From Marsupella aquatica (lineage: Eukaryota > Plantae > Marchantiophyta): 64,000 nt of DNA. Made by a program: the position numbers and the translations under genes. Below, piece after piece: positions 7,600-62,213 of this stretch; the first letter of the stretch is position 1; every line of letters starts with the position of its first letter. The notes below the pieces were generated by a model. It was not told the origin of the DNA, did no database searches, and saw only the letters and a list, made by a program, of their open reading frames with translations. The stretch is taken from positions 13,767,934 to 13,831,933 of the forward strand of contig OZ316899.1 in NCBI GenBank assembly GCA_973895155.1. Reading direction: 5' to 3'.

Positions 7600-7949
7600 A
7601 ACTCCCCCTTGACTCTAGTCCTTAGCTAACTACCTGGTAGTGTTACTTCTAACTATCCGTATGAATCTCCTCGGGAAGTTCTAGAAGGTAAAACCAATGA
7701 GTTTTCCCTCTATACCCGAGAGCTAACTAGAACTAAGCCGTAGTTGACAAAGTATCAGATAGAGCAGACATACTTAGAAATAAACTACCTACCTAGTACT
7801 AGCTCTTGTTACCCATATGTATCTCCTTGGGAAATTCTAAACAGAAAACCTATGTTTCCCCCTTCTCCATGAGGGTTAACTGGAATTAGACCATAGCCGG
7901 TACATACCGGATAGAGAATACGTATGCAAGAAAACTAACACTAAGCATC

Positions 7950-10620: not shown

Positions 10621-10625
10621 CTACC

Positions 10626-13600
10626 TGTGGTGCGTCCCATGGCTCCCTAAACCCAAGAAACCCCCCAGCTCAAGCCGATTCCTGCAGGTTTCGCGCTTGG
10701 CGAGGCCGTTTCCGTGGCTTAGCGGCATGGGACGCTGCTAACCTTCTACTACTACTATTAACATTTTACACACATATACTGGACAGATCCTTCATCGGGT
10801 CATGAGATACGTAGCCGGCCTAATCTAGGCCTTCCCCTGTCTTCCCCTCCGTCTTGTTAGGTATGTTTGGATTCCGCCGCCGGAATGATCCCCAATAGGC
10901 TTGGTTAAGCCGCTAAGACCTCTCTCAGCTCGACACATCCAACTCTCACTCCCCTGCTTACTTTCCTTCCTTTTGGTTGATGTGGGCACTCTTCACACAA
11001 GTTAATGCGACACACAAATAGCAAAATGACTCATTCTGACTGAGTCATACCATGCACTTGCCATACAAACAGTACATCTCATACACAAGCTCTGCGAACT
11101 AAGCCGTGAGGCCAACTCTATTCAGCTCTTAGGCATGAGGAAACATGAATATACACAAGGGTCACTGTATGACTAACCGAGAGCTTCTCGTACTACTTGA
11201 TCCCAGCCCGGCTGGTGCAAACTAAAAACTTGCTAAAGAAGAGGCCCTGAGCTCCCCGCTACCCAGGTACTTATCCTGGTAGTGGATCCACCATTCTTTG
11301 CATCGTAAGCCTAATCTACTTAACAGTAATCTACTTGACCGAATCTACCTATGTACAGCAAGGCAGGAGCACAAGTGTTGCTCCTACCAGTGGGACCGCA
11401 ATCCCACTAAGCTAAGTGTCAGGGCCGCTCCTGGTCCTGATCCTAATCCTAAACTTGGAGATCCGCGCCCGCCCTACCCACTCACGCCTCCTCCCTCCAC
11501 GTCCGCCCTCCCTAAAAGGAACGGCGCCCTTGCACCGTCACGACACCGGTGGTGGATCCTTAATGGACGCCCCCAACGCTTCCTCCTCAGCCACTGCCGT
11601 AGGTTCATTTTCTGACAGATTACCTGCCCTTGACTGAGTCAACTCTCCATCGGCCTGACTGGGTCCACCATCGGCGTCGGCATCGGCTCGGGAATCGGTT
11701 ACGGCCTCAGCCTCGGCTACGGTCTCCCCGGCCTGCTCAAGAGGCGGATCTGGAATACCGGCCTCATTACTGAGTAGTTCGGCTTGGGCCGCACCACCGC
11801 CACCTGGGATGATAGCGGGATCTATTGCCGTATTCATGCCGGAGGATGGTGCTGGTTCTACCTCCTTGGTCACCACGGCTTGTGGAGTCGGATTACTCCT
11901 TGACCCTGAAGGTTTCCGCTTTTTCTTCTTTTCTGGTTCGGCAGCTGGTCCCTTCCCCTTCCCACTTACTTCCGGTACTGGTGCAGGTGGCGCGGCTTTT
12001 TCTTCGGCCAGTACCACTCCTGGTAACTTGGTTGCCCCAATTGGAGTTGGGCCTGATGAAGACAAGCACTTAAATACTGCGGCTTGTTTCTTCAGCCGCT
12101 CCGTTTGGTTGTCGGCCCGCCGCTGGAGGTTCTCCATCTTCCTCGTGATTTCCTCCAACTCCTCCTGGGTCTCATCCAGGTCCTTGCGTGCCTCCTCTAG
12201 TTCCTTCTGGGCTTCCTCCCGTTCTTGTTTCAAGGTAGTCCTCTCCTCCCGGGTTGCTCTTAGCTCCTTGTCGAGCTCTGCAATGATGACAGACTCCATC
12301 TGGTTCATCTTGGCGTAAGTCTGTTTGAGCATCTCGTCCTTCTCCCTTAGGTCGGCCTTGAAGCTGGCCGTCAGGGACGCAAGCTCCTGCTGCAGCGCCA
12401 TAATCCCTTGATAGGATTTCCCTAACTCGGCCTCCTTCTGCTCAAGGGCTCCGCGGATTTTCTCGAGCTCCCCCTTCAATGCCCATTCCTTTCTTTGGGT
12501 CTCCGCCATGGCCCGGCTGTTGGCTGTTATGTGGGCCTCCTCTGTATTCTTCAGCTCTTGCTTCCACTTCTCCCTCTCTTTGATCGTGTCGGCCAACTCT
12601 CCCTACGTCTGAGTCAGTTTTTCCTTGATATTCTGATTATCAACCTGCGCGGTGTCCAACTGCCCCTGCATGATGTTCAGCTCATGCCGTTTAATCCGCA
12701 GTTCATCTTGGGCTTTCTTGGCCGCCCTTAGATCTTCAATCTCGGCTTCCATCCTCCTAAGCCACCGAATGACCTCGTCCTTCTTGCTTCTCTCTAAAGC
12801 CACCGCTTCTTCTAATTGGTGCTTCTCCAACTGCTCCCTATAGAAAAAGGGTCCTACCTCCAACTCCTCTCCAAAGATGCCGAGCGCAAGTTCCCCACAC
12901 ATCTCACCATACTCCATGGCTCTATTCTTAGCATAGGTGGAGTAAGTAGAAGTGATCGGCATCGCCCATCGCGGCCTCTGCTCCCAAGCCGTCCTGCGGA
13001 TCTCTTCAATCGTGGCTAGAGGTTTTCTTCCTTTTTCGGCTAGCCGCCTGATGTCCTCCGGCCAATCTCCTCCTGGTAAATCCTTTTCCCTAGCCAGGGC
13101 TGCCTCCTCTTCCTGCCTGATTCGCTCCTGAAATTCCTGCACCGTCTGTTTTATGCCGTCAAAGCTCGGGGGAGCAACATCTGGTGGGGGAGACTCAGGG
13201 CTACTCTGCTGGTTGGGGTCCCCTCGCACTACCCTTGGAAGTGTGGGGACAAACCGGCCACAGGTCCTTACTCCTGGAACGTGATGGTCCGACCCATAGC
13301 CGGAATTATCATGGCTGCAGTCCTCCACTGCCTCCTCTACTTCTTGGACGTCCGGCTTCTCCCTCTCCTCTTCGTCGGTAGGAGCTTCAGGCAATTCTGC
13401 CTCAGATTCGGAGCTTGAGATTCCCACATACATTCGAACACCTGGCTTGGATTCCGGCCTGATTCTCTCCTTGTCTCCAGCAAAGGGGTTTTCTCTTGTG
13501 AGCCGGTGTAGGCCTACCTATGTAGTAGTGTCCTGCATTGTTGCCGTTGCCGTTGTTGTTGCCGATGCCGATTTCTTTTCTTTCTCCAGTAGTTTCAGCA

Positions 13601-15288
13601 GACTCTGCATGCCTGGTTGCTGCATCGGCAAGTCCTCCTTCCTGGGCCTAAACACCTGCTCGATCGTAGGGCTAACAGGTGGTTGAGGCTTCTCAGCCAA
13701 CGGCCTCGGCGTTGGAGCTTCCTCGGGTGCCCTTACCTGCAGGGGAAGTACTGGGGCAAAAGTCTGACCTCTGGCATACCGGCACAACAGCGGCATGTGA
13801 TAGCCAAGCCGCGATACGCTCCCCATGCCGATTACCTGCTGCTCCTCCTTTAAGATCTTCTTCAATTGGTTGAGGAGGTACCCGTTGTAGTCCCGGCTTG
13901 GGTCTGGCCTTTCTGCCAGATAGACCTGTGCTTTGCCGATCTCTGCCCTCGGCAAGTTACAATGCATGGTCACCCGCAAGAAATCGATCATCTCTCCTAT
14001 GTGCGGGTTGGTGCAGGTGTTCCGGAAGAAGCCATTCTTCGTTGATGGCCCGGGGAACGACCGGAACTCCTTGTCAGGCAAGGTCTTCCTGGTATCAACT
14101 TTGGTCTTATTGCCTATCGGCAAGCCAAACACTTCGGCAATTACCTTGGGAGTAAGATAGAAATCCTTCCCATATATCCTCGTGCAATTGGTCTCGGGTT
14201 CCCATGACCCCACAAATTCTAATAGGTCTGACTCCGGTACCTCCGGCTTCAGCCATGGTAATCTTACAAAGGCCTCTAAGCCGGATCCGGCCATGAAGCC
14301 TTGGTACTTCTTGGTCTGCATGGCCGTAAAGCATGCATCCTCCTCCCGTGCAAAATGTAGTTGCACCTCCACCGGTAGGGTTGCCGCCCAGCCCTTCCAG
14401 GTGTCATCCCTGGTTGGAATGGCCTTGATGGGATCGACCTCCTCCTCTTCGGCTTCTCCCTGCCTCCTGCTCTGCTGCTCGGCTGGCTTCTTTGGTGCCG
14501 CCGACCTCGTTCTTTTTGCCGGGGTGGCTTCATCGTTGACGGCTCCCTTCCTCTTCATCTCTGCTGCCGTGGAGGTTTCTCCTAGCACCATTGCCTGGGT
14601 CCACCTTTCCGTGCTACCCTTTAATTCCCAGTGTATGTCGTTGCAGTTCTTGATGGCCTCTCGGATGCCGACGACGCTGTCTTTGCAAAACAGAAGATCG
14701 TCGAGTTGATTGGAAGTAGGCGTCCACAGGAACTCGTCCTTGATGAGTTCGCCTCCTAAGAAAGCTGTCTTCTGCAGCTCCCACAATCGAGCGAGCTCCT
14801 GCCGTTCTCGAGCTGCCCTTTCTGATTCCTCGTCCTCGTAAGTCTTGATGTACTCAGTTGCCCGTTCGAACAGGCATCCCCAGAAATGTGCCGCTTGATT
14901 GACGTTGCTCATACCCTCCTTAGGTCGATCGTCGGTATCTACTCTCTCCCCAAGTGCTTGCCTAAGCAGCTGACAGTAGTTGGCCTCCCGTAGTCGTCTG
15001 CCTAGTTCGTGCTCGCAAATGAGCCACCATCTCCTGCAAGCGCTCCCTACCCCTCTCCTCTGCCTGTCCTTCTTCCCGTTGATCCTTCCTAGCCGCCGAT
15101 GCTTAACGCGCCCTAACCCTAATCGAGTTTTCACCCTCAGCGTCCTTACCTCCGGCCTCGGCCCGGGTTCCATGGTTGCCCCTAATTGTTTATATTTTCC
15201 TTGTTTTGTCCCTATACTAAGGTGTTCCTAGGGTGCCTTCCTACTTTACCCACTTAACTGGCCGAGTGATTCCTGTCTAGGCATCACA
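10626..15288 (-). repeat. 3' LTR of Gypsy A (4,663 bp)
   Basis: TGTGGTGCG...GGCATCACA on the plus strand; near-identical to 21513-26178. Confidence 0.96.
11538..15173 (-). pseudogene. LTR-encoded ~1,211-codon ORF (basic N-terminus, plant-transposon/PMD-like domain, acidic linker, long coiled coil), broken by 2 in-frame TAGs
   Basis: ORFs 13518-15173, 12603-13433 and 11538-12596 share one frame, separated only by TAG at 13518 and 12603. The 12603 codon is CAG in the other LTR. Confidence 0.85.
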
Positions 15289-18200
15289 TAGCTCCCCACT
15301 TAATTGTGAAGCGTCCTCGCGAACCACTTCATCTTCGTCCATATAGTATTTCTTGAGGCGGTCATAATGGATGCGAACTGGATATACCTCTCCCGTAATG
15401 TTGGCCAATTGTACGGAGCCATTGGGGAACATCATGGTTACTCTAAAGGGTCCTAACCAGCGAGTGTAAAGCTTTCCTGGAAACCTACTATACCTACTGT
15501 CATAAAGTAGCACAAGATCACCGGTGTGAATACTAACTACTTTCAACTTTTTATCATACTGCTGCTTCATGATATTCTGTCTATATTCTACTCTCTCGGC
15601 TGAAATCATTCTCGCCTCCTCTAAAGCTTCTAACCTATATTCTCGCTCCTTTAGGCTCTCCTCCGCTGAGGCTCTTTCCTCAATTGTAACTTGAAATGTC
15701 GGTATCTCAAGTTGCATGGGTACCAGGGCTTCTTGTCCAAAGGTTAAGAAGAAGGGTGTATGACCGGTAGTGGATTTATAGGCAAGATTGTAAGCAAAAA
15801 CAGCAGCAAACAATTTATCATCCCAATCGAGTTTGTTCTGAGCTACTGTCTTGTTCAATATCTTTCCTATAATTCCGTTTGCTCGTTCTGTCAACCCATT
15901 TGCCTTTAGATGGTAGGGAGTAGTAGGCCTATGTTTAACTAAATACTGCTCATTTAAACGACTAATTATATCATTCAAAAAATGGGTTCCTCTATCACTA
16001 ACTAATTCTAGGGGTGCTCCATACCTGGTGAAGATCTGCTCATACATGAATTTAGCCGTAGTAATTGCATCATCCTTCGTTGTTGGTCTGGCCTCTACCC
16101 ATTTAGTTGCATAATCCGTAGCCAGGATTATGTACTTGTTCCGTTGAGGGTGGGTCAGTGGTTTCAGAGGTCCAATGTAATCAATACCCCACTTCTCGAA
16201 TGGTGCCAGAGGTAGAATAGGGTGCAGTGGATGTCTGGTGGACGCCCTTGGTCCTCCCGCTCGTTGACAAGGATCGCATTGTTTGATAAACTGATAGACA
16301 TCCTTGTGCAAGGTGGGCCACCAGCAACCGGCATTTAATATCTTCTTAGACGTGGTTACTGGGGCAAAATGTCCTCCGGCTTCCTCTCCATGCATGGCCC
16401 GTAGGACTCGTTTTACCTCTCCCTTTTCCAAACACCTTTGAATCGTGCCGTTGATTCCATGCTTGTGCAGTATGCCTTTAATGCACTGATACTGTCTGAC
16501 CTTCCGCACAAAGACTGCGGCTTGCTCTCGGCTTAATCCTGGCTGTAATCTGGAAGTGCTGAGAAATTGTAAAATCTCAGGGTACCATGTATCAGCTATT
16601 TCCACAACGAATAGCTCCTCGTCGGGGAATCAATCATCGATGCAATCCGTGGCAGGTTTACCTGTGATCCTTGAAAAGAAGTCGGCATTGGCGTGTAACT
16701 TTCCCGGCTTGATCCTCAGCTCATAGTCAAACTTCTGTAATAGCAAAATCCATCTTGCTACTCTGCCTGTAAGGTCCGGCTTATTGACTAGGTACTTCAA
16801 ACTTTCATGATCGGTATGAAAGATTACCTTGTACCCTAGTAAATAATGCCTAAACTTTTTACAAGAATAAATGACTCCTAATGCTTCTCTCTCTGTGGTG
16901 GAGTAGTTCCGTTTGGCATCGGCAAGCTGACGGCTTGCGAAGTATATGGGATGGTCCCTTCCTTTCTCATCCAACTGACTTAGTACTGAGCCGATACAGA
17001 ACCCCGAGACATCTACAAAAACATGAAAATCTTTGTTCCAGTCCGGTGCTATCATGACTGGGGCCTCTACTAACATCTGCTTCAATTCTACCACCGCTGT
17101 GACTCGTTCGGGTGTGGGTTCGAAGTCTGCTCCTGTCTTGAGCATGTTGGTTAATGGTAAAGCTAGCTTGGCAAAATCCTTGATGAACCGGCGATAGTAA
17201 CCAATGCATCCCAAGAAGGATCTTACATCCTTTATGTTCTTAGGTTGCATGATATCTAGCCATACTGCTAGCTTACCTTTGTCAATCTCAATGCCCTTCC
17301 TTGATACCTTGTGACCTAGTAGCACCCCCTCGGTTACTGCAAAGAAACATTTATCTGGGTGTAACTTGAGACCCACCTCTCTACATCTCATGAAGGTTTT
17401 CCTGAGGTATTTAGCATGTTTCGATGCCTTCCCAAATACTGCAAAGTCATCAATGAAGATTTCCATGAACTTTCTCAAGTAATCATGAAAAATGTTCACC
17501 ATGAATCGTTGAAACATAGCTGGTGCGTTGCAGAGTCCAAACGGCATACGATTGAAGACATAGATCCCCCATTCCGTGATGAAGGCCGTCTTGATTTGGT
17601 CTTCCTGCCGAATCCTGATTTGGTTATAACCAGAGTATCCATCCATGAATGAATATAGTTCATGACTGGCTACCATGTCTAGTACCATATCAGTAAACGG
17701 TAAAGGAAAATGGTCTTTTAATGTTGCTTCATTTAGCTTCCTGTAATCCTGACAAACCCGGATCTTGGGTTTACCATCGGGTCCAGCTTTCTTGGGAACT
17801 ATCACAATTGGAGACACCCAGTCTGAATGCAGGACTGGAGTGATGAATCCAGCTTCCACTAGTTTGTCGATTTCTGTTTTGACCAGCAGGGAATACTTCG
17901 GGTTCATCCTTCGAATTGGTTGTCGAAATGATTTGGCTCCTAACATGAGATCAATTCGATGTTCCCCTAGTGTTGGATCTACTCCCTTTAGATCTTGGTG
18001 ACTCCATGCAAACACATCCTGAAATTCAATCAATAAGTCACTGATCTCTTTCTCGAGCTCAGGTGCTAGGTTTCTCCCTAAGTTCAGTTCTCTTCCCTCT
18101 CCTAAGTCGAGCTTCCGATATTGCCGTGCTTGGATCATATTAATCTGCTTCTTCAAATTCGGGTCCAGTTCGGCTTCCAGTCTCTCCAATCTCATACCTC

Positions 18201-21200
18201 CATAAACTGGAATCTCGGCTGGACTAGCCGAGTCGGTCCCTTCCTTGGTGTCCATAGATTGTCCCCTTGCCGGTCTATTCGGTTTTGAATTGGTGGTCGG
18301 CTCCCCTTCCTGTCTTGGCTCTGGATTGTGTTTGTCCATCTCATCCACCTCTTGCTCCTGAGAGTCAGGCCGTTGTGCTCTCTCGGCTTCTAATAGGGCC
18401 TCAATTTGTTCTGCCCTCGTAATCGGCTTGTATGCCGATCCCTTGGTATTTAATTCCTTGCCGATGATCGATGGCGTTGTGAACCCTGCCGGCTCTGCCA
18501 CAACGCCTGCAGAAAATCCACTGTCCCTGCTACTGCTCCCCACTTAGCCGTTTCATCCAATTGGTCTACATCCTTTACTTCCTCCGGAATTGCAGCTAAA
18601 AAGGTGGATTCTATTGTAAAGCAGTCCTCGACCTCTTCGTCTTCTTCTTCCAAGTCACCTTCCATTGGTTCTTGCCATAATCCGCTGGGGGGTACCTCTG
18701 GTCCAAAGACACTTTCTTCGGTTAGGTCAGTGAGGCATTCTAACCAACGTACTTCATCGGCTGACTCCAATCCACTGTTGTACCCATCTACTTCCCTTAT
18801 GCTTTTCCTATGGTCATCCTTAGTGTCCCAGGATACCGTGATAGAGGGGGTCCCAAAAGTGAACTGCTTTTTACCCCAATCTTCTATTACCTCGGCTAGG
18901 TACAGCCATGGCCTACCAATCAATAGTCGGAATGACGTAGGATTTACCGGCTTCATTACTACATAGTTAATGCTAAAGAAGATACCTCCTATCTCTGTCT
19001 TGATGCCGGTTAACACTCCCGTGGGAATGACCTGATATCCATTGGCCATGTTCAACACTCTTCTAGTCATCTCCGGTGTTAGACCCCACCCTTTTGCTGT
19101 TGAATCAATCATAATACATACCCCTGATCCTCCATCGATTGGTACCCGTAGTAATAATTCTCCTTGAATCATTAATGGTAATGCTGGGGCTCCTTGATCT
19201 TCTTCTATCATTAGTACGTCGGATCTGGTTGCTACCTTGGGTAATCTCGGCTTGCCGAGAATAGCCTTCCTTAATTGCTTCCGGAAGTACGGGCTATTTT
19301 TCAATAGTTGACCTACTATTGCCGAGACTCTAGATTCTAGTACATCTTTAGCCAGGTCATAGGGAACAATCGGCTTCTCCTCTGGTGGTGTCTCCGTCTT
19401 GGATTCGGCCAGTTTTGCCACGCTAGTCTCCACAGCTGTTGGGTCTTCCGAAGCAAACAATGCTTTTGCTCGTTTTACATCCTTGGCAATGGCTTCGGTA
19501 TTCTCCAAGGTTTCTAATTCTCTTAGTTGTTCCTTAACACTAGCCGTAACAGAGGGGTAGAACAACTTAGGATGATCTCGATTGAAGTCGCTATCTTGTG
19601 AAGGATTGGGTTCACTGGTGGGCTCATGGCTTACCTGTATTGCCGGAGCCCTCCCTTCTCCTTCCGTTGATGTTGACGAAGAGTCGATCTTTTCCTCCGT
19701 AACCTTCCCTTTATTTTTGGCCAGCCCATCCCACCTTTCCTTCCTTCTGGTAGATCGAGTAGAGACCCGGTAGCAATCATGATCTAAATCCTCCTCTGAG
19801 AAGGTTGATAGGGCTTCGGCCTCATCATCAGATGGTACAAACTCTGCCTCGGCATCCTCTTGCCATCCTAGTTCGATGTGGTTGATTTGAACTCCTCCGG
19901 GGGTAGTACCTGGCGGTAAGATCTTGACCGGCAAAAGTTTATGATTTGCGGCCAGGCCTGCCAACCAAGTAGGACATTGCCCTAGCATATGACCTTCCTG
20001 TCGGCATCCCATACATAGCTGAGCTGGTTGTCAATCACCTTGTTTGCGTGCATTCGGGCATTCTCTAGCAAAATGGCCAGGTTGACCACAATTATAGCAT
20101 GCCGCAAATCTTTGCACATTCGGCCTAGGAGGTACTGACGGGTTCTGAATAATCCGAGGATACATCTCTCCTGTGTTGTTCCTTAACCCTGACCATAGAG
20201 ATGCAGGTCTGTTGGATAGGTCTCGTGCTCCAATCTCACTGATGCCGAAAACACTATCAGCGGCATCTCCTAAAAAGTACTCTACTTCTCCCTGACATGG
20301 TTTGATCTCGGCCACATGCCGAACATGATTAGTATTAAGCTTAGGACACGCATCTTTATGGTGTCCGGTTTTATAACATAAGGCACACCATACAGAGCTA
20401 TCCTCCTATACTACCTTCTTCTTCGGTTTTACCTCTGCAATGATAGCCTTAAGTTGCTCGGTAAGGGCTACGATGTTATCTGGTGGCTTAGCCTCCAGCT
20501 TGACTTTCGTCTTCCCTCTCCTTCTGCCCTTCCTTTTGGTAGTTTTTTCTTCTTCAAAACTAGAAGATGACTCACTCTTGCTACTCCCACTATCCGAGCT
20601 TGACTTATCACTTCTAGACTTCTTAGAATGTTTCTTCTTCTTATCTTTTTTCTTATGGGGTGATCCCTCTTCTGATGAGGAACTCTCAGACTTAAGCTGT
20701 TTCTTCCGGCTTGTGATATCTGCATTAATGTATAATTGAATATCCTTAATTGCTTCGGCTAAAGTCTCCGGGTTCTCCTTCCTAATTGCAAAACTCATCT
20801 TCTGTGGCAAAGCATTCACCAACCATTGAAGTTGCATACCTTCAGATGCATTGGTCTTTGTACGTCTTACCAGTTTCTGAAAGCGTTGCAAGAACTTCCT
20901 GAAGGATTTGTTCTCCTTGAACCGAAGTCGTCCCAACTTCAGCACTGCTAGTTCTGAAGTTCCAATTGGTCGAAACTCCTTAACAAAGAGTGTTTTGAAG
21001 ATATCCCAGATGGCTTGATCTTCCACATCTAATGCTCTGTACCAAGGCCTAGCCTCACCCTTGAACAGGCCGGGAAGAATCTGCATCTTGATGGCCGATT
21101 CTCCATTTGCTGCAGCGGTTCCCTCGAAATCATCCAACCATTCATCCGGATCCTCATCTCCTCTCCCATGAAATGCCTTGTAATGTATGCACGACCGCTG

Positions 21201-21443
21201 GCTCAATCTGGTCCCTGGCCTCTCGTCTGGCCGTGCCTCTAGTTCCCCCATGTCGGTTGGAGACTCACTTCTCCTTACCGACTCTTCTTCTGGTATGTCT
21301 TCTTCGACGCCACTTCCAGTTTCGGAGCTACCAGCTCTTTCTGCCCCTCTCAGTCGCTGTGTATCATGCCACCCGGCGAGCTGCTGCAGTCGAGCTCTCT
21401 CCCGTTGAATCACTCTTTCTTCCCTCGGCGTAAGGTCAGTCAT
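15277..21443 (-). pseudogene. gag-pol of Gypsy A: gag with three Zn-knuckle-like motifs, protease, RT, RNase H, integrase; 3 in-frame stops and 1 frameshift
   Basis: CALCYKTGHHKDAC, CYNCGQPGHFAREC, CMGCRQEGHMLGQC; PIDGGSG; RVCQDYRKLN, MDGYSGYNQI, FIDDF; DVSGFCIGSVL, NYSTTERE; H..GHF..C..C, WGIDY, SDRGTHF, ANGLTER, WLGPF. Stops at 20406, 20031 and 16630; frameshift near 18450-18540. Confidence 0.96.
15289..15301 (-). promoter_or_regulatory. Short polypurine tract of Gypsy A, inside the integrase coding sequence
   Basis: Minus strand AAGTGGGGAGCTA immediately precedes the LTR start TGTGATGCC. Confidence 0.7.
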
Positions 21444-21490
21444 TACCTACGCTTCCGTTCTAACTTCATATCTCACGGCTTAAGAAATGC

Positions 21491-21508
21491 CCCCTCCATC
21501 TGGTGCCA
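21491..21508 (-). promoter_or_regulatory. Primer binding site of Gypsy A (primer tRNA not identified)
   Basis: Minus strand TGGCACCAGATGGAGGGG, 4 nt after the 5' LTR end. Confidence 0.75.
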
Positions 21509-21512
21509 AAAA

Positions 21513-24500
21513 TGTGGTGCGTCCCATGGCTCCCTAAACCCAAGAAACCCCCCAACTCAAGCCGATTCCCGCAGGTTTCGCGCTTGGCGAGGCTGTTTCC
21601 GCGGCTTAGCGGCATGGGACGCTGCTAACCTTCTACTACTACTATTAACATTTTACACAGTCACATATACTGGACAGATCCTTCATCGGGTCATGAGATA
21701 CGTAGCCGGCCTAATCTAGGCCTTCCCCTGTCTTCCCCTCCGTCTTGTTAGGTATGTTTGGAATCCGCCGTCGGAATGATCCCCAATAGGCTTGGTTAAG
21801 CCGCTAAGACATCTCTCAGCTCGACACATCCAACTCTCACTCCCCTGCTTACTTTCCTTCCTTTTGGTTGATGTGGGCACTCTTCACACAAGTTAATGCG
21901 ACACACAAATAGCAAAATGACTCATTCTGACTGAGTCATACTATGCACTTGCCATACAAACAGTACATCTCATACACAAGCTCTGCGAACTAAGCCGTGA
22001 GGCCAACTCTATTCAGCTCTTAGGCATGAAGAAACATGAATATACACAAGGGTCACTGTATGACTAACCGAGAGCTTCTCGTACTACTTGATCCCAGCCC
22101 GGCTGGTGCAAACTAAAAACTTGCTAAAGAAGAGGCCCTGAGCTCCCCGCTGCCCAGGTACTTATCCTGGTAGTGGATCCGCCATTCTTTGCATCGTAAG
22201 CCTAATCTACTTAACAGTAATCTACTTGCCCGAATCTACCTATGTACAGCAAGGCAGGAGCACAAGTGTTGCTCCTACCAGTGGGACCACAATCCCACTA
22301 AGCTAAGTGTCAGGGCCGCTCCTGGTCCTGATCCTAATCTTAAACTTGGAGATCAGCGCCCGCCCTGCCCACTCACGCCTCCTCCCTCCACGTCCGCCCT
22401 CCCTAAAAGGAACGGCGCCCTTGCACCGTCACGACATCGGTGGTGGATCCTTAATGGACGCCCCCAACGCTTCCTCCTCAGCCACTGCCGTAGGTTCATT
22501 TTCTGACAGATTACCTGCCCTTGACTGAGTCAACTCTCCATCGGCCTGACTGGGTCCACCATCGGCGTCGGCATCGGCTCGGGAATCGGTTACGGCCTCA
22601 GCCTCGGCTACGGTCTCCCCGGCCTGCTCAAGAGGCGGATCTGGAATACCGGCCTCATTACTGAGTAGTTTGGCTTGGGCCGCACCACCGCCACCTGTGA
22701 TGATAGCGGGATCTATTGCCGTATTCATGCCGGAGGATGGTGCTGGTTCTACCTCCTTGGTCACCACGGCTTGTGGAGTCGGATTACTCCTTGACCCTGA
22801 AGGTTTCCGCTTTTTCTTCTTTTCTGGTTCGGCAGCTGGTCCCTTCCCCTTCCCACTTACTTCCGGCACTGGTGCAGGTGGCGCGGCTTTTTCTTCGGCC
22901 AGTACCACTCCTGGTAACTTGGTTGCCCCAATTGGAGTTGGGCCTGATGAAGACAAGCACTTAAATACTGCGGCTTGTTTCTTCAGCCGCTCCGTTTGGT
23001 TGTCGGCCCGCCGCTGGAGGTTCTCCATCTTCCTCGTGATTTCCTCCAACTCCTCCTGGGTCTCATCCAGGTCCTTGCGTGCCTCCTCTAGTTCCTTCTG
23101 GGCTTCCTCCCGTTCTTGTTTCAAGGTAGTCCTCTCCTCCCGGGTTGCTCTTAGCTCCTTGTCGAGCTCTGCAATGATGACAGACTCCATCTGGTTCATC
23201 TTGGCGTAAGTCTGTTTGAGCATCTCGTCCTTCTCCCTTAGGTCGGCCTTGAAGCTGGCCGTCAGGGACGCAAGCTCCTACTGCAGCGCCATAATCCCTT
23301 GATAGGATTTCCCTAACTCGGCCTCCTTCTACTCAAGGGCTCCACGGATTTTCTCGAGCTCCCCCTTCAATGCCCATTCCTTTCTTTGGGTCTATGCCAT
23401 GGCCCGGATGTTGGCTGTTATGTGGGCCTCCTCTGTATTCTTCAGCTCTTGCTTCCACTTCTCCCTCTCTTTGATCGTGTCGGCCAACTCTCCCTGCGTC
23501 TGAGTCAGTTTTTCCTTGATATTCTGATTATCAGCCTGCGCGGTGTCCAACTGCCCCTGCATGATGTTCAGCTCATGCCGTTTAATCCGCAGTTCATCTT
23601 GGGCTTTCTTGGCCGCCCTTAGATCTTCAATCTCGGCTTCCATCCTCCTAAGCCGCCGAATGACCTCGTCCTTCTTGCTTCTCTCTAAAGCCACCGCTTC
23701 TTCTAATTGGTGCTTCTCCAACTGCTCCCTATGGAAAAAGGGTCCTACCTCCAACTCCTCTCCAAAGATGCCGAGCGCAAGTTCCCCACACATCTCACCA
23801 TACTCCATGGCTCTATTCTTAGCGTAGGTGGAGTAAGTAGAAGTGATCGGCATCGCCCATCGCGGCCTCTGCTCCCAAGCCGTCCTGCGGATCTCTTCAA
23901 TCGTGGCTAGAGGTTTTCTTCCTTTTTCGGCTAGCCGCCTGATGTCCTCCGGCCAATCTCCTCCTGGTAAATCCTTTTCCCTAGCCAGGGCTGCCTCCTC
24001 TTCCTGCCTGATTCGCTCTTGAAATTCCTGCACCATCTGTTTTATGCCGTCAAAGCTCGGGGGAGCAACATCTGGTGGGGGAGACTCAGGGCTACTCTGC
24101 TGGTTGGGGTCCCCTCGCACTACCCTTGGAAGTGTGGGGACAAACCGGCCACAGGTCCTTACTCCTGGAACGTGATGGTCCGACCCATAGCCGGAATTAT
24201 CATGGCTGCAGTCCTCCACTGCCTCCTCTACTTCTTGGACGTCCGGCTTCTCCCTCTCCTCTTCGTCGGTAGGAGCTTCAGGCAATTCTGCCTCAGATTC
24301 AGAGCTTGAGATTCCCACATACATTCGAACACCTGGCTTGGATTCCGGCCTGATTCTCTCCTTGTCTCCAGCAAAGGGGTTTTCTCTTGTGAGCCGGTGT
24401 AGGCCTACCTATGTAGTAGTGTCCTGCATTGTTGCCGTTGCCGTTGTTGTTGCCGATGCCGATTTCTTTTCTTTCTCCAGTAGTTTCAGCAGACTCTGCA

Positions 24501-26178
24501 TGCCTGGTTGCTGCATCGGCAAGTCCTCCTTCCTGGGCCTAAACACCTGCTCGATCGTAGGGCTAACAGGTGGTTGAGGCTTCTCAGCCAACGGCCTCGG
24601 CGTTGGAGCTTCCTCGGGTGCCCTTACCTACAGGGGAAGTACTGGGGCAAAAGTCTGACCTCTGGCATACCGGCACAACAGCGGCATGTGATAGCCAAGC
24701 CACGATACGCTCCCCATGCCGATTACCTGCTGCTCCTCCTTTAAGATCTTCTTCAATTGGTTGAGGAGGTACCCGTTGTAGTCCCGGCTTGGGTCTGGCC
24801 TTTCTGCCAGATAGACCTGTGCTTTGCCGATCTCTGCCCTCGGCAAGTTACAATGCATGGTCACCCGCAAGAAGTCGATCATCTCTCGTATGTGCGGGTT
24901 GGTGTAGGTGTTCCGGAAGAAGCCATTCTTCGTTGATGGCCCGGGGAACGACCGGAACTCCTTGTCAGGCAAGGTCTTCCTGGTATCAACTTTGGTCTTA
25001 TTGCCTATCGGCAAGCCAAACACTTCGGCAATTACCTTGGGAGTAAGATAGAAATCCTTCCCATATATCCTCGTGCAATTGGTCTCGGGTTCCCATGACC
25101 CCACAAATTCTAATAGGTCTGACTCTGGTACCTCCGGCTTCAGCCATGGTAATCTTACAAAGGCCTCTAAGCCGGATCCGGCCATGAAGCCTTGGTACTT
25201 CTTGGTCTGCATGGCCGTAAAGCATGCATCCTCCTCCCGTGCAAAATGTAGTTGCACCTCCACCGGTAGGGTTGCCGCCCAGCCCTTCCAGGTGTCATCC
25301 CTGGTTGGAATGGCCTTGATGGGATCGACCTCCTCCTCTTCGGCTTCTCCCTGCCTCCTGCTCTGCTGCTCGGCTGGCTTCTTTGGTGCGCCGACCTCGT
25401 TCTTTTTGCCGGGGTGGCTTCATCGTTGACGGCTCCCTTCCTCTTCATCTCTGCTGCCGTGGAGGTTTCTCCTAGCACCGTTGCCTGGGTCCACCTTTCC
25501 GTGCTACCCTTTAATTCCCAGTGTATGTCGTTGCAGTTCTTGATGGCCTCTCGGATGCCGACAACGCTATCTTTGCAAAACAGAAGATCGTCGAGTTGAT
25601 TGGAAGTAGGCGTCCATAGGAACTCGTCCTTGATGAGTTCGCCTCCTAAGAAAGCTGTCTTTTGCAGCTCCCATAATCGAGCGAGCTCCTGCCGTTCTCG
25701 AGCTGCCCTTTCTGATTCCTCGTCCTCGTAAGTCTTGATGTACTCAGTTGCCCGTTCGAACAGGCATCCCCAGAAATGTGCCGCTTGATTGACGTTGCTC
25801 ATACCCTCCTTAGGTCGATCGTCGGTATCTACTCTCTCCCCAAGTGCTTGCCTAAGCAGCTGATAGTAGTTGGCCTCCCGTAGTCGTCTGCCTAGTTTGT
25901 GCTCGCAAATGAGCCACCATCTCCTGCGAGCGCTCCCTACCCCTCTCCTCTGCCGGTCCTTCTTCCCGTTGATCCTTCCTAGCCGCCGACGCTTAATGCG
26001 CCCTAACCCTAATCGAGTTTTCACCCTCAGCGTCCTTACCTCCGGCCTCGGCCCGGGTTCCATGGTTGCCCCTAATTGTTTATATTTTCCTTGTTTTGTC
26101 CCTATACTAAGGTGTTCCTAGGGTGCCTTCCTGCTTTACCCACTTAACTGGCCGAGTGATTCCTGTCTAGGCATCACA
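21513..26178 (-). repeat. 5' LTR of Gypsy A (4,666 bp)
   Basis: Same termini as the 3' LTR; differs by a 4-bp indel (~21659), a 1-bp indel (~25390) and scattered substitutions. Confidence 0.96.
22429..26063 (-). pseudogene. Second copy of the LTR-encoded ~1,211-codon ORF
   Basis: Same protein, with its own lesions (frameshift ~25390; stops at 24628, 23392, ~23330, ~23279) plus the shared TAG at 24409. Confidence 0.85.
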
Positions 26179-26183
26179 CTACC

Positions 26184-27030: not shown

Positions 27031-27196
27031 AAGCATGTAGTTTGTGCATTCAGGAGAGTAGACACGGTACATGGTACATGACAGAGGATTTCAACGCTTG
27101 GTGTGGCAGAGTGCCGTGTCTGCAGGGTGTCTAGAAGGGGCATAGTGACTGCAGGTAATGCCTTGCTTGTGAGGGTCATGGACCATGCCCTCACAT

Positions 27197-31518: not shown

Positions 31519-31582
31519 GTGCTGCCGCGGAGAACCTCAAGGGTACTCTTGAAATAGGTGTCATATTCAAGATGGGCATTAT

Positions 31583-45063: not shown

Positions 45064-47520
45064 TGTCACGTCGTCGGCTGCGGCCTTAACTCAGACTTCA
45101 GCTTAGACGGGCACATCCCTCGTAAATCTGAGGGTTCGGGCAGGAAGGGAAGCACGTAATGCACCTTATTCTCGTAAACTAGCGCTAAGTGCGCATACTG
45201 CTAAATACGGACACCTCCTAGGTATGGTTTGTGTTCCGCCGCCGGAACGTACCTTAGTCGATAGCAGGATCGAACCCGGCTTAAGGGCTTCTAACCCTTC
45301 GTGCTGTCCGCCTTTGATCCGAATTCGATGATATAGGTCCTCAACCCGTGCTCGCAACCACTTACCCGCAGGCTGCACCCTGTGCACGTCTCGGGTAGTG
45401 CGTTCGGCCTGGCGCTGCCACCCATATACGAGAAACCCACACACATACACGCGCACATGCATACAATCTTGATTTACACGAAGGAAAATGATGGGAAAGG
45501 ATTTTACTACAAAGGGAACATATGCGTACACTTAGTTGACCCGACAGCCCCGGAATGAACAGGTTCAAGGCCGAGGGTGCACACTACAACGGAGCCCGGC
45601 TCCGCACTCGCCCGACGAGCTTAGTCCTACCCCCTCCCCTTGGTACTCTTTCATTCCCAGAGGTCGGGACTCCCCGCACATACCGCGGATGTCCAACTCT
45701 GCAACTAAAAACCCCCCTGCCTCTACCGAGGGGTGCACTAAATACTAAGGGACGAGGGACGGGGTGTCCTCTCGCCGAAGATTCGTTGACTAAGGTCCTA
45801 ACTAAGCTGACAGTCAGGCCGGAAAATGGCTGTGTCTTATTAGAAGATCCTAATCTACGCAGGCTGGACAGCATGGCAGCGCTGCTGTACCTAAGGCAGG
45901 TGCCTGTCCCAAGAGCCTGACTAAGCCAGTCCTAATCCTAATCTATTCCTACTCCGCTGCTAATGCCTGGCACGCTTGCCAGAGCCGCCCGAATGGGAGC
46001 GGCCATCCCGCTGCCTTCAAAGCCTGTCATTGTCCGCCTTGAGGAGCTGGACCTGGTCCAGCAGAGATTCGTTCTCTCACCTCGCCGCGTCCATCTCCTC
46101 TGCTGCCTCCTGACATGCCTCCTCCAGCTGCTGGGCATCGCTCGTCAGTTTACCCGCCAGCTGGTCCTGCTTCTCGGCCTCGGTTTGGAGCCGCGCCACC
46201 TCGGCCTGCAGCGTGGCTATCTCCGCCGTGTCCCGTTGGGCCCGTTCCTCGGCCTCCTCCAGGTCTTTCTGCCAGGTGACGGTTTGATTCTTCAAACTGT
46301 CAATCTGGTTCCGGAGTCGTGTAATCTCGGCCTCGTTCCCAGCTTTGGCCTGTTCGGCTAGGGCGGTAAGAGCGTGCGCCTTTGCTAACAACTCATCGGC
46401 GGCTGCAACCTTGGGTCGTAGTTGCAGAAGCTCAGCCTCTTGAGCTGCAACTTCGTTCTTTAGGTACACGGACTCCACCCGGTACCGCTCTATCCTCTAA
46501 AGGGCCTCTGACTGGGCCCGACCTGCCTTTACTGCGGCAACCAACTCCTGATTGAAGAAACAGGCTACCTTCCGAGCCATGAACTCCCCGGTATCCCGGG
46601 CAATTTGATGAGAGAAATCTCCCAGAAGCCCGTTCAGAAATGTACCCGGTACGAAGAGTTCCGGGTGGTCCAGGTTGTGCCTGTCCGGAGTTGGGCACGG
46701 GTAGACCTCAACACGCGCAGGGGCCGGGGCAGTGACGTCCAGCCCTGGGGATGTAACGTTGGAAGGGGCTGGAGTGTCCTCCTGCAACAATGTCCGGTTC
46801 TCCGGAATAGCCACCGATGGGTCTTTGGGAGACCCGGGCTCGGGTAAGACCTCCGTCGTACCAACTTCTGTACTTAGCCCGGCTTGTTGGGTCGCATCAA
46901 CGGTTGCGACAACCGACCCATCCGGTACCTCCTCGGTTACGACTACAGCTACTTGTGGAGGTGGGGTGGGTGAAGCTGGCGTGTCCGCTGGACTTCGGGC
47001 CTCGGGTTGGGGCCGTCTCTCCAAGGCCGGGAAAACCCACCTAGCTGGGACCAGCTTTGTAACGTTGACACGGGGAAGGGTTCGTCGATCAAACCGGGTG
47101 TACCACTCAAGAATGATCTCGATGTGGCTAGCAAAATACGTCTTCCCGCCAATGTACAGCGTCTTCCTTCGCCGCTCCATCTCTTCATGGAATTTCTTAG
47201 CGAAGTACGACGCCCACTTCCTAGGTCGATAGTTCTCGACCTGGATAACCTGGGCGGCGGAGATCTCCCCCCGGGGTTCCATCATGTGGAGGGCGTACCT
47301 CTGGAACTCCAGTCGCTCAGCTCGTAACCCGGGTGTGCGAATAGCGACCCGCCACCAGTCCAAACCTGAATTCCCTCTTATTGCCTAATGATGTCCTACC
47401 CATAATGATTACCTAAATACTATCGTTATGCTAATAATAGCGGCCTAAGACACTCCTAACGCGCGTGCTAAGCGCAGTTAGACCGAATCACTCATTAACC
47501 GCCGTACCGGCGGCGTCACA
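45064..47520 (-). mobile_element. Solo LTR B1 (2,457 bp, probably internally deleted) with a coiled-coil ORF; flanks do not form a TSD
   Basis: TGTCACG...CGTCACA termini; the same terminus appears inverted at 62213. Flanks GCAGG and CAAAC. It cuts the A' LTR at 47521. Confidence 0.85.
45960..47363 (-). pseudogene. LTR-borne ORF of family B (C-half of the PMD-like domain, Pro-rich linker, coiled coil)
   Basis: The 288-aa and 133-aa ORFs are in one frame. TAG at 46497 is CAG and TGA at 46077 is CGG in the B2 copy. EISAAQV..KWASYF..TYFASHI matches the A and D ORFs. Confidence 0.78.
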
Positions 47521-48683
47521 CAAACACTTTGGCAATCACTCGGGGAGTGAGATAGAAATCCTTCCCATACACCCTTGTGGAATTGGTCTCGGGCTCCCAT
47601 GATCCCACGAATTCTAGTAAGTCTGAATCCGGCACCTCCGGCTTCAGCCATGGTAAATTTATGAAGGCTTCCAAGCCGGATCCGGCCATGAAGCCCTGGT
47701 ATTTTTGAGTCTGCATAGCCGTAAAGCATGCATCCTCTTCCCGTGCAAAGTGTAATTGCACCTCCTTGGGGAGGGTCGCTGCCCAGCCTTTCTAGGTGTC
47801 ATCTCTTGTTGGAACGACATTGATGGGGTCAACCTCCTCCTCTTCGGCTTTCGCCTGCCTCCTGCTTCCCTGCTCTGCTGGTTTCCTGGCTGCCGCCGAC
47901 CTCATTCTTTTTGCAGGGGTGGCTTCTTCGTTGTTGTTCCCTTTCCTCTTCATAGCGGCTGCCATGGATGTTTCTCCTAGCATGGTTGCCTTCATCCACC
48001 CCTCTGTGCTACCCTTCAACTCCCAGTGTATGTCGTTGCAGCGGTTGATGGCCTCCTGGATGCCGACTGTTCTGTTCTCACAAAACAGAAGATCGTCGAG
48101 TTCATCGATAGTAGGCGTCCACAAGAATTCAGCCGTAATGAGTTCTCCTCCTAAGAAGGCAGACTTCTGTAGTTCCCACAGCCGAGCGAGCTCCTGCCGT
48201 TCTTGAGCCGCTCTCTCCGATTCTTCGTCCTCGTAGGTCCCAATGTACTCAGTTGCCCGTTCTAATAGGCATCCCCAAAAATGAGCAGCTTGATTAACGT
48301 TGCTCATACCCTTCTTGAGTTGATTGTCGGTATCTGCTTCCACCCCAAATGCTTGCCTGAGCAGCGAACAGTAGTTGGCCTCCCGTAGTCGTTCGCTTGG
48401 CTCGTGCTTGCAAATGAGCCGCCATTCCTTGCGCTCGGTCCTTACCCCCCCTTGGCTGGTCTTCCTTCCCGTTGGTTACTCATAGCCGCCGGTACTTAGC
48501 GCGCCCTAACCCTAATCGTGTTCCCTCCCCCGGCATCCTTACTTTCAGCCTTGGCTCGGGTTCCATAGTCACCCTTAATTGTTTATATTTCCCTATTTTT
48601 GTTACTATACTAAGGTGTTTCCTAGGGTACACTCCTGATTTTACTATTTAAACTGACCTAATGATTCCTGGCTAGGCATCACA
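47521..48683 (-). mobile_element. Partial A' giant LTR (duplicate of 1-977, extended leftwards to the B1 junction)
   Basis: Homologous to ~14126-15288; ends GGCATCACA at 48683. Confidence 0.9.
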
Positions 48684-60731: not shown

Positions 60732-62213
60732 GCTTCGCCAAACTCCGGGAGGTTGGTTGCGGCTGTAAGGGCAGGACATGCGCAGGTAGAGACAACGCAG
60801 AGAATAGAGCAAAATCAGGTTGAGTCTGCCTACCTAAAGGATGAAGTGGCAACCCTGGAGGCTGAACTCCAGCAACTATGGCCTCAGGTAACGGCCACGG
60901 AGGACCAGGTTGCCAAGGCTAGGGCCCGAGCAGCTTTAGCAAAACAGGCCGGGCTTGGAAAGGACGCTGAGATCGCACGGCTCCGGACCAAGATTGACGG
61001 TTTGAAGGGACAAGCCGTCAGTTGGCAAAAGGATCTGGAGGAAGCTGACTCTAGGTCTTAGCGGGACACAGTCGAGATTGACACCCTAAAGGTAGAGGTG
61101 GCACGGCTTCAAGGAGAAGCCACAAAACAGGCCCAGTTGGTGGATAAGCTAACGAGCAACACCCAGCAACTGGAGGAGGCACGCCAGGAGGTCGCCTAAG
61201 AGGCGGACACGGTGAAGCGGGAGAACGAATCTCTGCTGGACCAGGTCCAGCTACTCAAGCAGGATGCCGATAGACTCAGAAGGGAGCGGGATAGCCGCTC
61301 CCACTCAGGCGGCTCTGGCAAGCGTGCTAGGCATTAGCGGCGGAGTAGGATTAAAATAGAGTTAGGAATAGCTAAATCAGGCTATAGGGACAAGCACCTG
61401 CCTAGTTAAAGCAGCACTGCCATGCTGTCCAGCCTGCGTAGATTAGGATCTTCTAATAAGACAAGCCGTTTTCGGGCCTGATAGCCAGCTTAGTTAGGAC
61501 CTTAGTTAGCAAATCTTTGGGCGCGAGGGCACTCCGTTCCTCGGCCCTTAGTATTTAGTGCACCCCTCGGTAGAGGCAAGGGGGGGTTTTAGTCTCAATG
61601 TTGGACATCCGCGGTATGTGCAGGGAGTCCCGACCTCTGGGAGTGAAAGAGTACCAAGGGGAGGGCGTAGGACTAAGCTTGTTGGGCGAGTGCGGAGCTG
61701 GGCTCCGTTGTAGTGTACACCCTTGGCCTTGGACCTGTTCATTCAAGAGCTTTCGGGTCAACTAAGTGTACGCATATGTCTCCTATGTAGTAAAATCCTT
61801 TCCCATTATTTCCTTCGTGTAAATCAAGATTGTATGCTTGTGCGTATGTATATGTGTAAATCTTGTGTATAGGTGCCAACGCTTGGCCAAACGCCACTAC
61901 CCAAGTCGTGCACGGGGTGCAGCTTGCGGGTAAGTGGTTGCAAGCCCGGGTTAAGTACCCATATCATCGAATCCGGATCGAAGGCGAAGCCCGTAAGCCG
62001 GGGTCGATCCTGCTATCGACTGAGGTATGTTTTGGCAGTGGAACACTAACCATACCTAGGAGGTGTCCGTATATGACAATAGGCGCACTTAGCGCTAGTT
62101 TACGTGAGTTAGGTGCATTCCGTGCCTCCCTCCCTGCCCGAACCCTCATTTTGACAAAGGATGTGCCTGTCTAAGCCGAAGCCCGGGTTAAGGCCTAGAC
62201 TGACGACGTGACA
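60732..62213 (+). mobile_element. Partial LTR B2, inverted relative to B1, inserted in the Copia 5' LTR
   Basis: ORF 60753-61061 matches 46077-46478. Ends GACGACGTGACA at 62213, directly followed by Copia LTR sequence. Confidence 0.9.

Follow-up and report, generated by a model that had tools for sequence, protein, structure and literature searches.

We conclude that the DNA studied here, a 64-kb stretch of contig OZ316899.1 of the liverwort Marsupella aquatica (64,000 nucleotides; the window), contains a Ty3/gypsy retrotransposon with a large gene inside each of its long terminal repeats (LTRs). The reading that we favor, with a probability of about 0.6, is that this is an element of a bryophyte lineage and that the product of its LTR gene, with a predicted VANC21/PMD fold and a coiled coil, binds a motif of its own family and counters host silencing in trans.

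The element is a full-length non-chromovirus of 15,553 bp on the minus strand (10626..26178), nested in a Ty1/copia element whose gag/PR (26136-27281) and IN-RT (8192-10285) regions flank it. It is bordered by a 5-bp target site duplication (TSD), CTACC, at 10621..10625 (plus strand) and 26179-26183. The 5′ LTR (21513..26178, minus strand; 4,666 bp) and the 3′ LTR (10626..15288, minus strand; 4,663 bp), both TG...CA, differ by 53 substitutions and 2 indels and are 98.76% identical in an alignment of 4,667 columns. The primer binding site (PBS; 21491..21508, minus strand) begins with TGG, is separated from the 5′ LTR by 4 nt, and may resemble an Asn primer; no tRNA gene lies within the window. 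The polypurine tract (PPT; 15289..15305, minus strand) sits inside the final integrase codons, and the pol stop codon (15277-15279) falls within the 3′ LTR. The LTRs make up 60.0% of the element, and the 6,224-bp internal region consists of gag-PR and RT-RH-IN, in keeping with a first-pass annotation that had described 60% LTR and an internal region of about 6.2 kb, almost purely gag-pol. The gag and protease frame (18450..21443, minus strand; Retrotrans_gag and zinc knuckles) has two in-frame stops and the RT-RNase H-integrase frame (15277..18543, minus strand) has one; in the latter, Pfam matched neither a chromodomain nor a second RNase H. With three in-frame stops across gag and pol, the window copy is not autonomous; it is dead.

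Related sequences lie elsewhere in the window. A truncated third LTR of the same family (58332..60736, minus strand) ends a 13-kb duplication, and a piece of an LTR from a related family (81% identical; 47521..48683, minus strand; second copy at 3-977) served as the partner for the dN/dS measurements. A second family is represented by a 2,457-bp TG...CA unit without an internal region (45064..47520, minus strand), which holds the C-terminal half of domain B (see below) and a coiled-coil frame, and by an 80% relative of that unit at 60737-62213.

Frame mapping in both LTRs placed a single sense-strand frame wholly inside each, as had been proposed. The long frame (15173 to 11538; 1,211 codons) is real, but its start had to be moved from 15173 to 14912, leaving 1,124 amino acids from Met88. 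The correction rests on three observations: differences from the 81% relative are spread over codon positions in codons 1 to 87 as in unconstrained sequence (20/23/12; p=0.17), a 2-nt indel sits near codon 40 of that relative, and four homologues start at the place of Met88. The 3′ LTR copy of the gene (11538..14912, minus strand) has stops at codons 552 and 857. The 5′ LTR copy (22429..25802, minus strand) has one frameshift, caused by the loss of 1 nt near codon 225, and five stops, those at codons 479, 891, 912, and 929 being private and that at codon 552 common to both LTRs. Most lesions are private, then, with one shared TAG, as first described; the view that the family consensus is open except for this TAG held for the openness, but the TAG proved to be confined to the window insertion. 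In each of four runs out of four, >99.9% of the contig depth has a different letter at the shared stop, and the family frame is therefore continuous there. A division into two ORFs at the TAG was rejected, as family copies read through codon 552. Before the gene, the LTR has a non-coding head of 376 nt (14913..15288, minus strand), a candidate promoter with a TATA-like TATAAA at 15194-15189 that is retained in the 81% relative. Behind it is a non-coding tail of 912 nt (10626..11537, minus strand), likely the original U3-R-U5, judging by the LTR of about 1 kb in the sister clade; no relic PPT was found in this tail.

Purifying selection acts on the family gene, as measured by sequence comparison over codons 88 to 349. 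Between the window LTR frame and the 81% relative (dS about 0.6), dN/dS is 0.28 (95% interval, 0.20 to 0.38; 345 codons), whereas the two remaining frames give about 1.0. Differences in codons 88 to 349 are concentrated in third positions (29/24/77; p=3e-9), and dN/dS falls to 0.10-0.21 in codons 91 to 349, which answers the question of neutral evolution left by the first-pass annotation: the ORF is not neutral over these codons. The frame of the second family gives 0.28 as well (243 codons). Long LTRs are normal for the family, a further point left for checking, since contigs cover all 12 LTR bins in 4/4 runs. The two window gene copies have been decaying neutrally since insertion, with 14 of 36 differences between the 5′ and 3′ LTR frames synonymous, at the neutral expectation of 36-39%. 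A dN/dS of 0.37 between these two LTRs was rejected as a selection signal, being an artefact of transition bias. Of the variant rows that fall in the frame, the 14 with the best support include 5 synonymous ones, a neutral-like share. Summed contig depth is 3.7 and 3.5 times higher over the LTR than over the internal region in two runs, where 2 times would be expected without solo LTRs; contig depth is not copy number, and the excess is only a hint of solo LTRs.

Related elements on metagenome contigs have a homologous gene 3′ of integrase (hhalign of the LTR gene against these 3′ ORFs: 96.8%, E 2e-10, 167 columns), and homologues persist in elements with RTs that are 57-63% alike. Two architectures occur, and they form sister groups on a quick RT-RH tree, with 92% support for the clade of the window element and L001, L002, L005, L008, and L009. 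In the sister clade, the gene is internal, between two PPT-like sites, and the LTR is about 1.0 to 1.1 kb, similar in size to the 912-nt tail behind the window ORF; in the window clade, the PPT directly follows integrase. Of nine close loci, five have the PPT motif directly after integrase and two have it after the ORF, with an LTR of about 1 kb. The window-type motif stands at the LTR start of L001, L002, L004, L005, L006, L008, and L009, although the contigs of L001, L002, and L005 end too early to exclude a second PPT, and a PPT-like site after integrase is retained in L003, L004, and L007. Given an internal gene in the sister clade and a PPT right after integrase in the window clade, a PPT switch likely placed the gene in what would be U3, a direction of change that we infer from these layouts. 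The first-pass annotation had framed the gene by analogy with retroviruses; the evidence points instead to a bryophyte lineage whose ordinary 3′ extra ORF, with a predicted VANC/PMD fold, was relocated by a change of PPT.

The protein can be divided into three parts. Domain A (aa 88-200; 14574..14912, minus strand) is conserved and helical; a ferritin-like identity was not accepted, as Z scores of up to 6.7 are generic helical-bundle matches. Domain B (aa about 252-475; 13749..14420, minus strand) has a predicted VANC21-like (PMD-like) fold and is unbroken in the 3′ LTR copy. A long, charged helical region (aa about 780-1030; 12084..12836, minus strand), as read from the sequence, is likely a coiled coil; its coiled-coil Pfam matches are weak and below the cut-off. 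It is followed by a basic patch, KKKKRK, and a disordered tail. The LTR protein has no transmembrane segment (highest 19-aa hydropathy, 0.82).

The fold of domain B is predicted from two AlphaFold models, each compared with 48,161 chains. The VANC21-DNA structure ranked first for both, with Z 8.9 for the first model (214 residues aligned; rmsd, 4.5; next Z, 3.0) and 8.8 for the second (216 aligned; rmsd, 4.1), values that barely exceed the level that the comparison tool regards as common. Foldseek likewise ranked VANC21 first for both, with E-values that are not significant (0.48 and 1.2; TM, 0.45 and 0.28). Identity to VANC21 is 8-12%. Sequence searches brought no further assignment: Pfam gave no match to DUF1985, PMD, Transposase_28/32, or ATHILA, whether in the LTR protein, in 23 homologues, or in 9 further proteins (E up to 10 for domain B and up to 1 for the 23 homologues); a word-based protein search with the N-terminal half found no match; a profile search found three proteins, none Pfam labelled; all matches of a PDB sequence search had E above 0.4; and the 35 pattern matches of a metagenome scan with the LTR protein included no relative. 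VANC and MAIN-type PMD have a common fold according to the available text of PMC13547354 and bioRxiv 2024.09.27.615353, and PMD is a known extra ORF of gypsy elements in that of PMC5418596 and PMC6317226. Indirectly, through this published VANC-MAIN similarity, domain B would likely belong to the same fold superfamily as PMD. In the available part of the literature, the earliest descriptions of MAIN/MAIL1 are as silencing factors, and both also appear in the blocking of Polycomb, and the PMD/VANC fold can therefore act in either direction. A common fold is by itself no proof of function.

A candidate target emerged from motif counts. Under synonymous shuffling, ATGCCG occurs 22 times in the element against 5.0 expected (z 7.2) and AAGCCG 29 times against 9.0 (z 6.5), with a 95% maximum z of 4.5 under the null. 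The excess of A[AT]GCCG-type motifs extends to all frames and both strands, and lies mostly in coding DNA; two neighbouring fragments also reach about 4 motifs per kb. The non-coding parts of the window family have no significant k-mer excess (p=0.36 for 7-mers, and 1.0). Other motifs are enriched in L002 and L009 (ATCCGGA) and in L004 (AGCGCTA), with z 8-12, and the control has none. Short CG-containing motifs that differ between families are what would be expected of self-targeting DNA binders; the excess could also reflect context-dependent CG decay.

In the explanation that we favor, plus-strand priming would have switched to the PPT-like site directly after integrase, so that the new LTR took in the spacer and the gene along with the old LTR of about 1 kb. 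Each LTR would be self-contained, its head supplying a promoter, and the gene would therefore be doubled at every insertion and would persist in solo LTRs. The protein may target the A[AT]GCCG-type motif spread through family DNA and act in trans on family members, with repressive marks removed or excluded, as for VANC. The window element inserted although its two LTRs share a stop, which would fit a supply of LTR protein in trans. We also suggest, tentatively and as something less probable, that a whole lineage of bryophyte retrotransposons has VANC-type, family-specific anti-silencing genes far older than those of dicot VANDAL elements, and that in one branch a PPT switch made each solo LTR a cassette of promoter, gene, and target motifs, able to keep the family derepressed in trans once the coding core is gone.

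The protein may instead have the same fold and bind DNA or chromatin for a different job: it could simply activate LTR transcription in trans, serve as a tether that directs insertions to heterochromatin, or repress in a self-limiting way. We consider this unlikely. In its favor, the fold is also that of MAIN/MAIL1, which are reported to act in silencing and to block Polycomb, neither domain A nor the long coiled coil has a role assigned to it, the element lies in a nest of other elements, and the motif is absent from non-coding arrays. Against it, the only solved structural match is an anti-silencing factor, and the family-specific motifs of relatives fit co-evolving self-recognition.

Explanations in which the protein does not act on DNA fare worse. 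A role as an accessory protein of the env-like, structural, or particle-associated kind would suit the long coiled coil and the sense-strand place 3′ of pol, which is that of env-like ORFs in the available text of PMC7264820; we regard it as improbable, given the lack of a hydrophobic segment at the hydropathy reported above, the VANC21 fold match, and the basic, NLS-like patch. Least probable, and already largely refuted, is a passenger: the relic of a captured or nested gene, without present function, whose frame would be open simply owing to the youth and GC richness of the family. Both window copies are indeed broken and have decayed neutrally since insertion, but the third-position excess against the 81% relative at the dS given above and the retention of homologues among elements with RTs 57-63% alike speak against a passenger.

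The favored anti-silencing role is made directly testable by the fold match, the candidate motif, and pairs of families with different motifs. The role of extra ORFs in plant retrotransposons is an open question in the available text of PMC7264820 and PMC6317226, and the sequence-specific anti-silencing described previously, in the sources as available, is that of dicot Mutator-like elements. If bryophyte retrotransposons do have a VANC-like fold, the origin of such anti-silencing would move earlier and towards retroelements. A gene in the LTR escapes solo-LTR formation, the host's usual way of disarming such elements, and will be overlooked by annotation that takes LTRs as non-coding. A partial literature search found no report of a plant LTR holding a whole gene, nor of a VANC fold in bryophyte retrotransposons.

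Gag, the RT-RH-INT order, TG...CA LTRs, PBS, PPT, and TSD identify the element as Ty3/gypsy. It has no chromodomain (Pfam), its integrase ending at the LTR edge, which separates it from chromoviruses, and one RNase H in five gag-pol frames (by Pfam rather than REXdb profiles), which separates it from Tat elements (TatI-III, Ogre, and Retand), defined by aRH. On the RT-RH tree, which contains no REXdb-labelled rows, Calypogeia, Riccia, and metagenome rows form a group with it (99), and seven angiosperm rows lie outside that group. Like Phygy and Selgy, non-chromoviruses of non-seed plants, it has a polyprotein that fills nearly the whole internal region; in REXdb, however, Phygy has a 4-bp NCGN TSD and a length of 7.7-10.0 kb, Selgy has a 4-bp TSD and 4.4-6.7 kb, and neither has a listed eORF, whereas the window element has a 5-bp TSD, 15.55 kb, and an LTR gene. 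Phygy is further characterized by its RT clade and a tRNA-Trp PBS. A 5-bp TSD is found in 95% of Athila elements (REXdb), which use tRNA-Asp, Asn, or Ala as primer and have their extra ORF internal, 3′ of pol, rather than in both LTRs. The extra ORFs of Ogre, Retand, and Athila (PMD, Transposase_28, and Athila ORF-1) are likewise accessory ORFs downstream of pol in non-chromoviruses with a 5-bp TSD (available text of PMC6317226, PMC5418596, and PMC7264820), and Ogre has long LTRs of 1.9-6.5 kb (available text of PMC6431247); those ORFs are, as far as these sources state, internal and mostly antisense, in contrast to a sense ORF without a Pfam match in both LTRs of an element without a second RNase H. 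Retrosat2, RIRE3, and FRetro3 combine LTRs of >3 kb with an extra ORF, but this ORF0 is a single copy upstream of gag-pol and is not assigned to the LTR (available text of PMC3485330).

Retroviruses have genes in or overlapping U3 (MMTV sag, HIV nef, and foamy virus bel/tas), whose coding sequence is duplicated with the LTR as in the window element; the window ORF is far larger, belongs to a plant retrotransposon, and gave no hint of homology to them in any search. A close counterpart is VANC21 of Arabidopsis VANDAL21 (PDB 9LNK/9LNJ), with which such transposons reverse silencing by the host and which the LTR protein is predicted to resemble in fold over about 215 residues of domain B. Both are transposon-encoded accessory proteins with a short motif enriched in their own element (PMC5735166, available text), and a coiled coil is predicted for VANC21 too (PMC13547354, available text). 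VANDAL, however, is a Mutator-like DNA transposon and VANC is termed dicot specific in the available text of PMC13547354, whereas the window gene lies in a gypsy LTR of a liverwort and its product combines low identity with the lack of a DUF1985 match. The targets differ in placement as well: those of VANC are in non-coding tandem repeats (available text of PMC5735166), whereas the window motif is dispersed in coding DNA.

The Ty3/gypsy element at 10626..26178 (minus strand, 15,553 bp) is bounded by a direct repeat, 10626-15288 (3' LTR) and 21513-26178 (5' LTR), at 98.76% identity in a self-comparison of the window. Both LTR copies begin with TG and end with CA, a 5-bp duplication (CTACC) borders the element, the PBS lies 4 nt behind the 5' LTR, and a purine tract stands directly ahead of the 3' LTR. 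The LTRs make up 60.0% of the element, and the 6,224-bp internal region consists of gag-PR and RT-RH-IN, the integrase end reaching 10-12 nt into the 3' LTR; the LTR pair, 60% share, and ~6.2-kb gag-pol region of the first-pass annotation are all borne out. A copia element surrounds this nested insertion. The gag-pol region has three stops. Between the LTRs there are 53 substitutions and 2 indels, most of the differences being C-to-T or G-to-A transitions at CG and CHG sites; four of the five private stops arose through such changes, a pattern that reads as the mark of a methylated copy. The gag-protease frame and the RT frame, which differ in phase, share 93 nt (18450-18543), either as family layout or as a lesion; PR-RT-RH-IN forms a single frame in two related metagenome loci (L001 and L002).

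Each LTR contains the sense-strand frame that had been described, with one stop common to both copies. The 3' LTR copy has two stops, and the 5' LTR copy has a frameshift and five. Contigs from four public runs cover every bin of the LTR, so the long LTR, rather than a short one lacking the gene, is the family form. Nearly all contig depth reads another letter at the shared TAG (130,219/130,391, 362,844/362,931, 82.7/82.7, and 14.3/14.3 depth units in the four runs); this stop therefore belongs to the present insertion, and the family frame is open there. Compared with an 81% identical LTR fragment at 47521-48683, the ORF has a dN/dS of 0.28 over 345 codons (other frames, 0.99 and 0.98) and is not neutral, selection on this family's gene being measured within codons 1-349 of the long frame (15173->11538). 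By part, dN/dS is 1.3 for codons 1-90 and then 0.18, 0.21, and 0.10; differences by codon position are 20/23/12 ahead of codon 88 and 29/24/77 after it. Because the codons before 88 are unconstrained and four homologues (P0141, P0147, P0151, and P0156) start at Met88, we place the gene at 14912->11538, encoding 1,124 aa; the long frame from 15173 exists, but the ~1,200-aa protein first read from it is too long. The two LTRs of this copy diverge neutrally (14/36 changes synonymous; expected, 36-39%).

A phmmer search of 1.84 billion representatives (threshold E up to 0.001) gave 24 matches; they cover domain A (aa 88-200) and, as a second block, domain B (aa ~250-475). Calypogeia is the source name of 4 of the 10 match clusters examined, and no Pfam family scored above cut-off among the phmmer homologues. 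When a domain B model built from 24 sequences (pLDDT 73.7) was compared with 48,161 chains, DNA-bound VANC21 was the sole chain with Z >5 (Z 8.9, next 3.0; 214 aligned, rmsd 4.5), and it ranked first in Foldseek (E 0.48, probability 0.63, TM 0.45). A second model (34 sequences, pLDDT 75.3), which shares most input sequences with the first and is not independent of it, gave Z 8.8 (216 aligned, rmsd 4.1) and again Foldseek rank 1 (E 1.2). Domain B is thus predicted to have the VANC/PMD fold. According to the cited work, VANC and MAIN-type PMD share a common fold (PMC13547354, bioRxiv 2024.09.27.615353), gypsy elements are known to contain PMD (PMC5418596), and VANC binds a short motif and strips methylation from its own family (PMC5735166). 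Domain A has helical-bundle matches only in structure comparison; the remainder begins with low-complexity sequence and continues with a long, charged helical stretch, a basic patch, and a tail that is disordered. No transmembrane segment was seen on reading the protein sequence.

The LTR gene is homologous to ORFs of related elements. An RT scan of metagenome contigs yielded 132 loci, of which 80 were taken and nine (L001 to L009; RT identity to the window, 56-63%) examined for layout. A domain B ORF lies 3' of integrase on the sense strand in L002 (called by alignment) and in L004, L007, L008, and L009 (by HMM, E 3e-5 to 0.02), and the profile of these ORFs matches domain B (96.8%, E 2e-10); contigs L001, L003, and L005 end too early for the ORF, and L006 shows only its end. 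The window's PPT motif lies directly 3' of integrase in L001, L002, L005, L008, and L009. In L001 and L002, the bases after it mirror the LTR end before the PBS (11/12; first 9/12), and no second PPT motif follows the ORF within 218 nt (L008) or ~1,100 nt (L009). In L004 and L006, the PPT is 3' of the ORF, with LTRs of ~990 and 1,086 nt, respectively. PPT-like sites directly after integrase also occur in L003, L004, and L007, with scores at least as high in 3, 7, and 8 of 500 random windows, respectively. LTR boundaries in these relatives come from collapsed metagenome contigs and are weaker evidence than the window's direct repeat, and no proof. A well-suited reference for the sister clade is L004:1-10852, a complete element assembled as a circle, whose frames are intact and which has an internal 745-aa extra ORF, a ~1-kb LTR, and two PPT-like sites.

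In a quick RT-RH tree, the two layouts form sister groups (support 92 and 100; 97 for both combined). The tree has 48 rows; the best 25 of 120 proteins and 22 of 80 loci, ranked on score and length, were put into it. Most simply, the ancestral ORF would have been flanked by two PPT-like sites, of which the window's branch would use the upstream one for priming; spacer, gene, and old LTR would thereby have become the new LTR. The 912-nt tail 3' of the LTR gene matches the old LTR in size. Such priming would place the gene in U3. The reverse order of change is a conceivable alternative.

A candidate target motif was sought by k-mer excess. The element's non-coding parts have no 7-/8-mer excess (p=0.36, 1.0); those of 8/8 related units and of the window element at 37.5-40 kb have a 7-mer excess (p 0.005-0.02), and those of the control have none. 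With 60 synonymous-codon shuffles of the whole element as null (maximum z 4.5), ATGCCG (22 versus 5.0 expected, z 7.2) and AAGCCG (29 versus 9.0, z 6.5) are in excess, as are ATCCGG/TCCGGA in L002 and L009 (z ~12), AGCGCT in L004 (z 8.1), and ACTAAG in the second LTR-like family of the window (z 5.2); the control again has no motif excess. ATCCGGA/TCCGGA is over-represented 4-7 times in L002 and L009, coding DNA included, and leads the non-coding counts in L001 and L005. One LTR plus the internal region holds 51 A[AT]GCCG sites, spread over every reading frame and both strands. Their density is 4-6.5 per kb in the element, with none in the LTR head (376 nt 5' of the gene), versus 0-1 per kb in most flanks; two related fragments have ~4 per kb. 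Within one genome, three families each have a motif of their own, and this speaks against a single mutational bias. Context-dependent CG decay remains a competing explanation of the excess.

Most likely, a VANC/PMD-fold protein expressed from the LTR head counters repression of family copies in trans. We infer that a promoter in the head, whose TATA-like box is also present in the 81% relative, would drive the mRNA, and that the product, nuclear and oligomeric, would bind the family motif and keep family copies free of repressive marks. Solo LTRs would retain the gene; support for their existence is weak and consists of an LTR to internal depth ratio of 3.5-3.7, which is not copy number and only a hint, and of the solo-like unit of the window's second LTR-like family.

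Elsewhere in the window, the two copies of a 13-kb duplication (1-13030 and 47707-60736) show 7 differences over 10,625 flanking nt and 37 over 2,405 nt of LTR. This concentration, with the third LTR at its end about equally distant from the 5' and 3' LTRs, suggests that recombination with a further copy of the family created the junction. A PBS of the L001, L002, L004, and L006 type lies at 2756 and at 50462 (plus) and belongs to another element in the duplicated block. The second LTR-like family (45064-47520, minus; 60737-62213, plus) carries half of domain B and a coiled coil under selection (dN/dS 0.28); its unit is solo-like, its own motif weak, with no TSD and with PBS and PPT absent at its flanks. 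A Ulp1/peptidase C48 frame lies at 29944-31536 (minus), a gene carried by some plant DNA transposons, and frames 33903-34934 and 40560-41189 have no Pfam match. Two minus-strand frames at 37503-39902 are of the L004/L006-type extra ORF (domain B family), with no gag-pol seen beside them, and are flanked on both sides by AACTCGTAA-type motif arrays (37208-37294 and 40137-40429; p=0.005), the same layout as described for VANDAL.

The best RT matches are in Calypogeia fissa (66-70%) and Riccia sorocarpa (53-58%), with angiosperm elements at ~45%; these matches point to a leafy liverwort as the likely host. On the tree, whose rows are without REXdb labels, the window groups with two Calypogeia rows (100) within a Riccia and metagenome group (99), apart from seven angiosperm rows. 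It fits neither Phygy nor Selgy, which have a 4-bp TSD and shorter elements (REXdb Additional file 5), and no Tat-type aRH or chromodomain was matched in Pfam. It was already known that plant gypsy elements can carry extra ORFs, that LTRs can be long, that PMD occurs in gypsy elements, and that VANC and PMD are linked. The available part of a review treats extra ORFs as internal (PMC7264820), and those of PMC12885004, PMC7466625, PMC12859917, PMC3485330, and PMC6431247 contain no LTR-gene or bryophyte-fold case. Our literature search, which partly covered the VANC papers and REXdb, found neither a plant LTR described as holding a whole gene nor a VANC/PMD fold described in bryophyte retrotransposons. 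Genes located in U3 are found in retroviruses.
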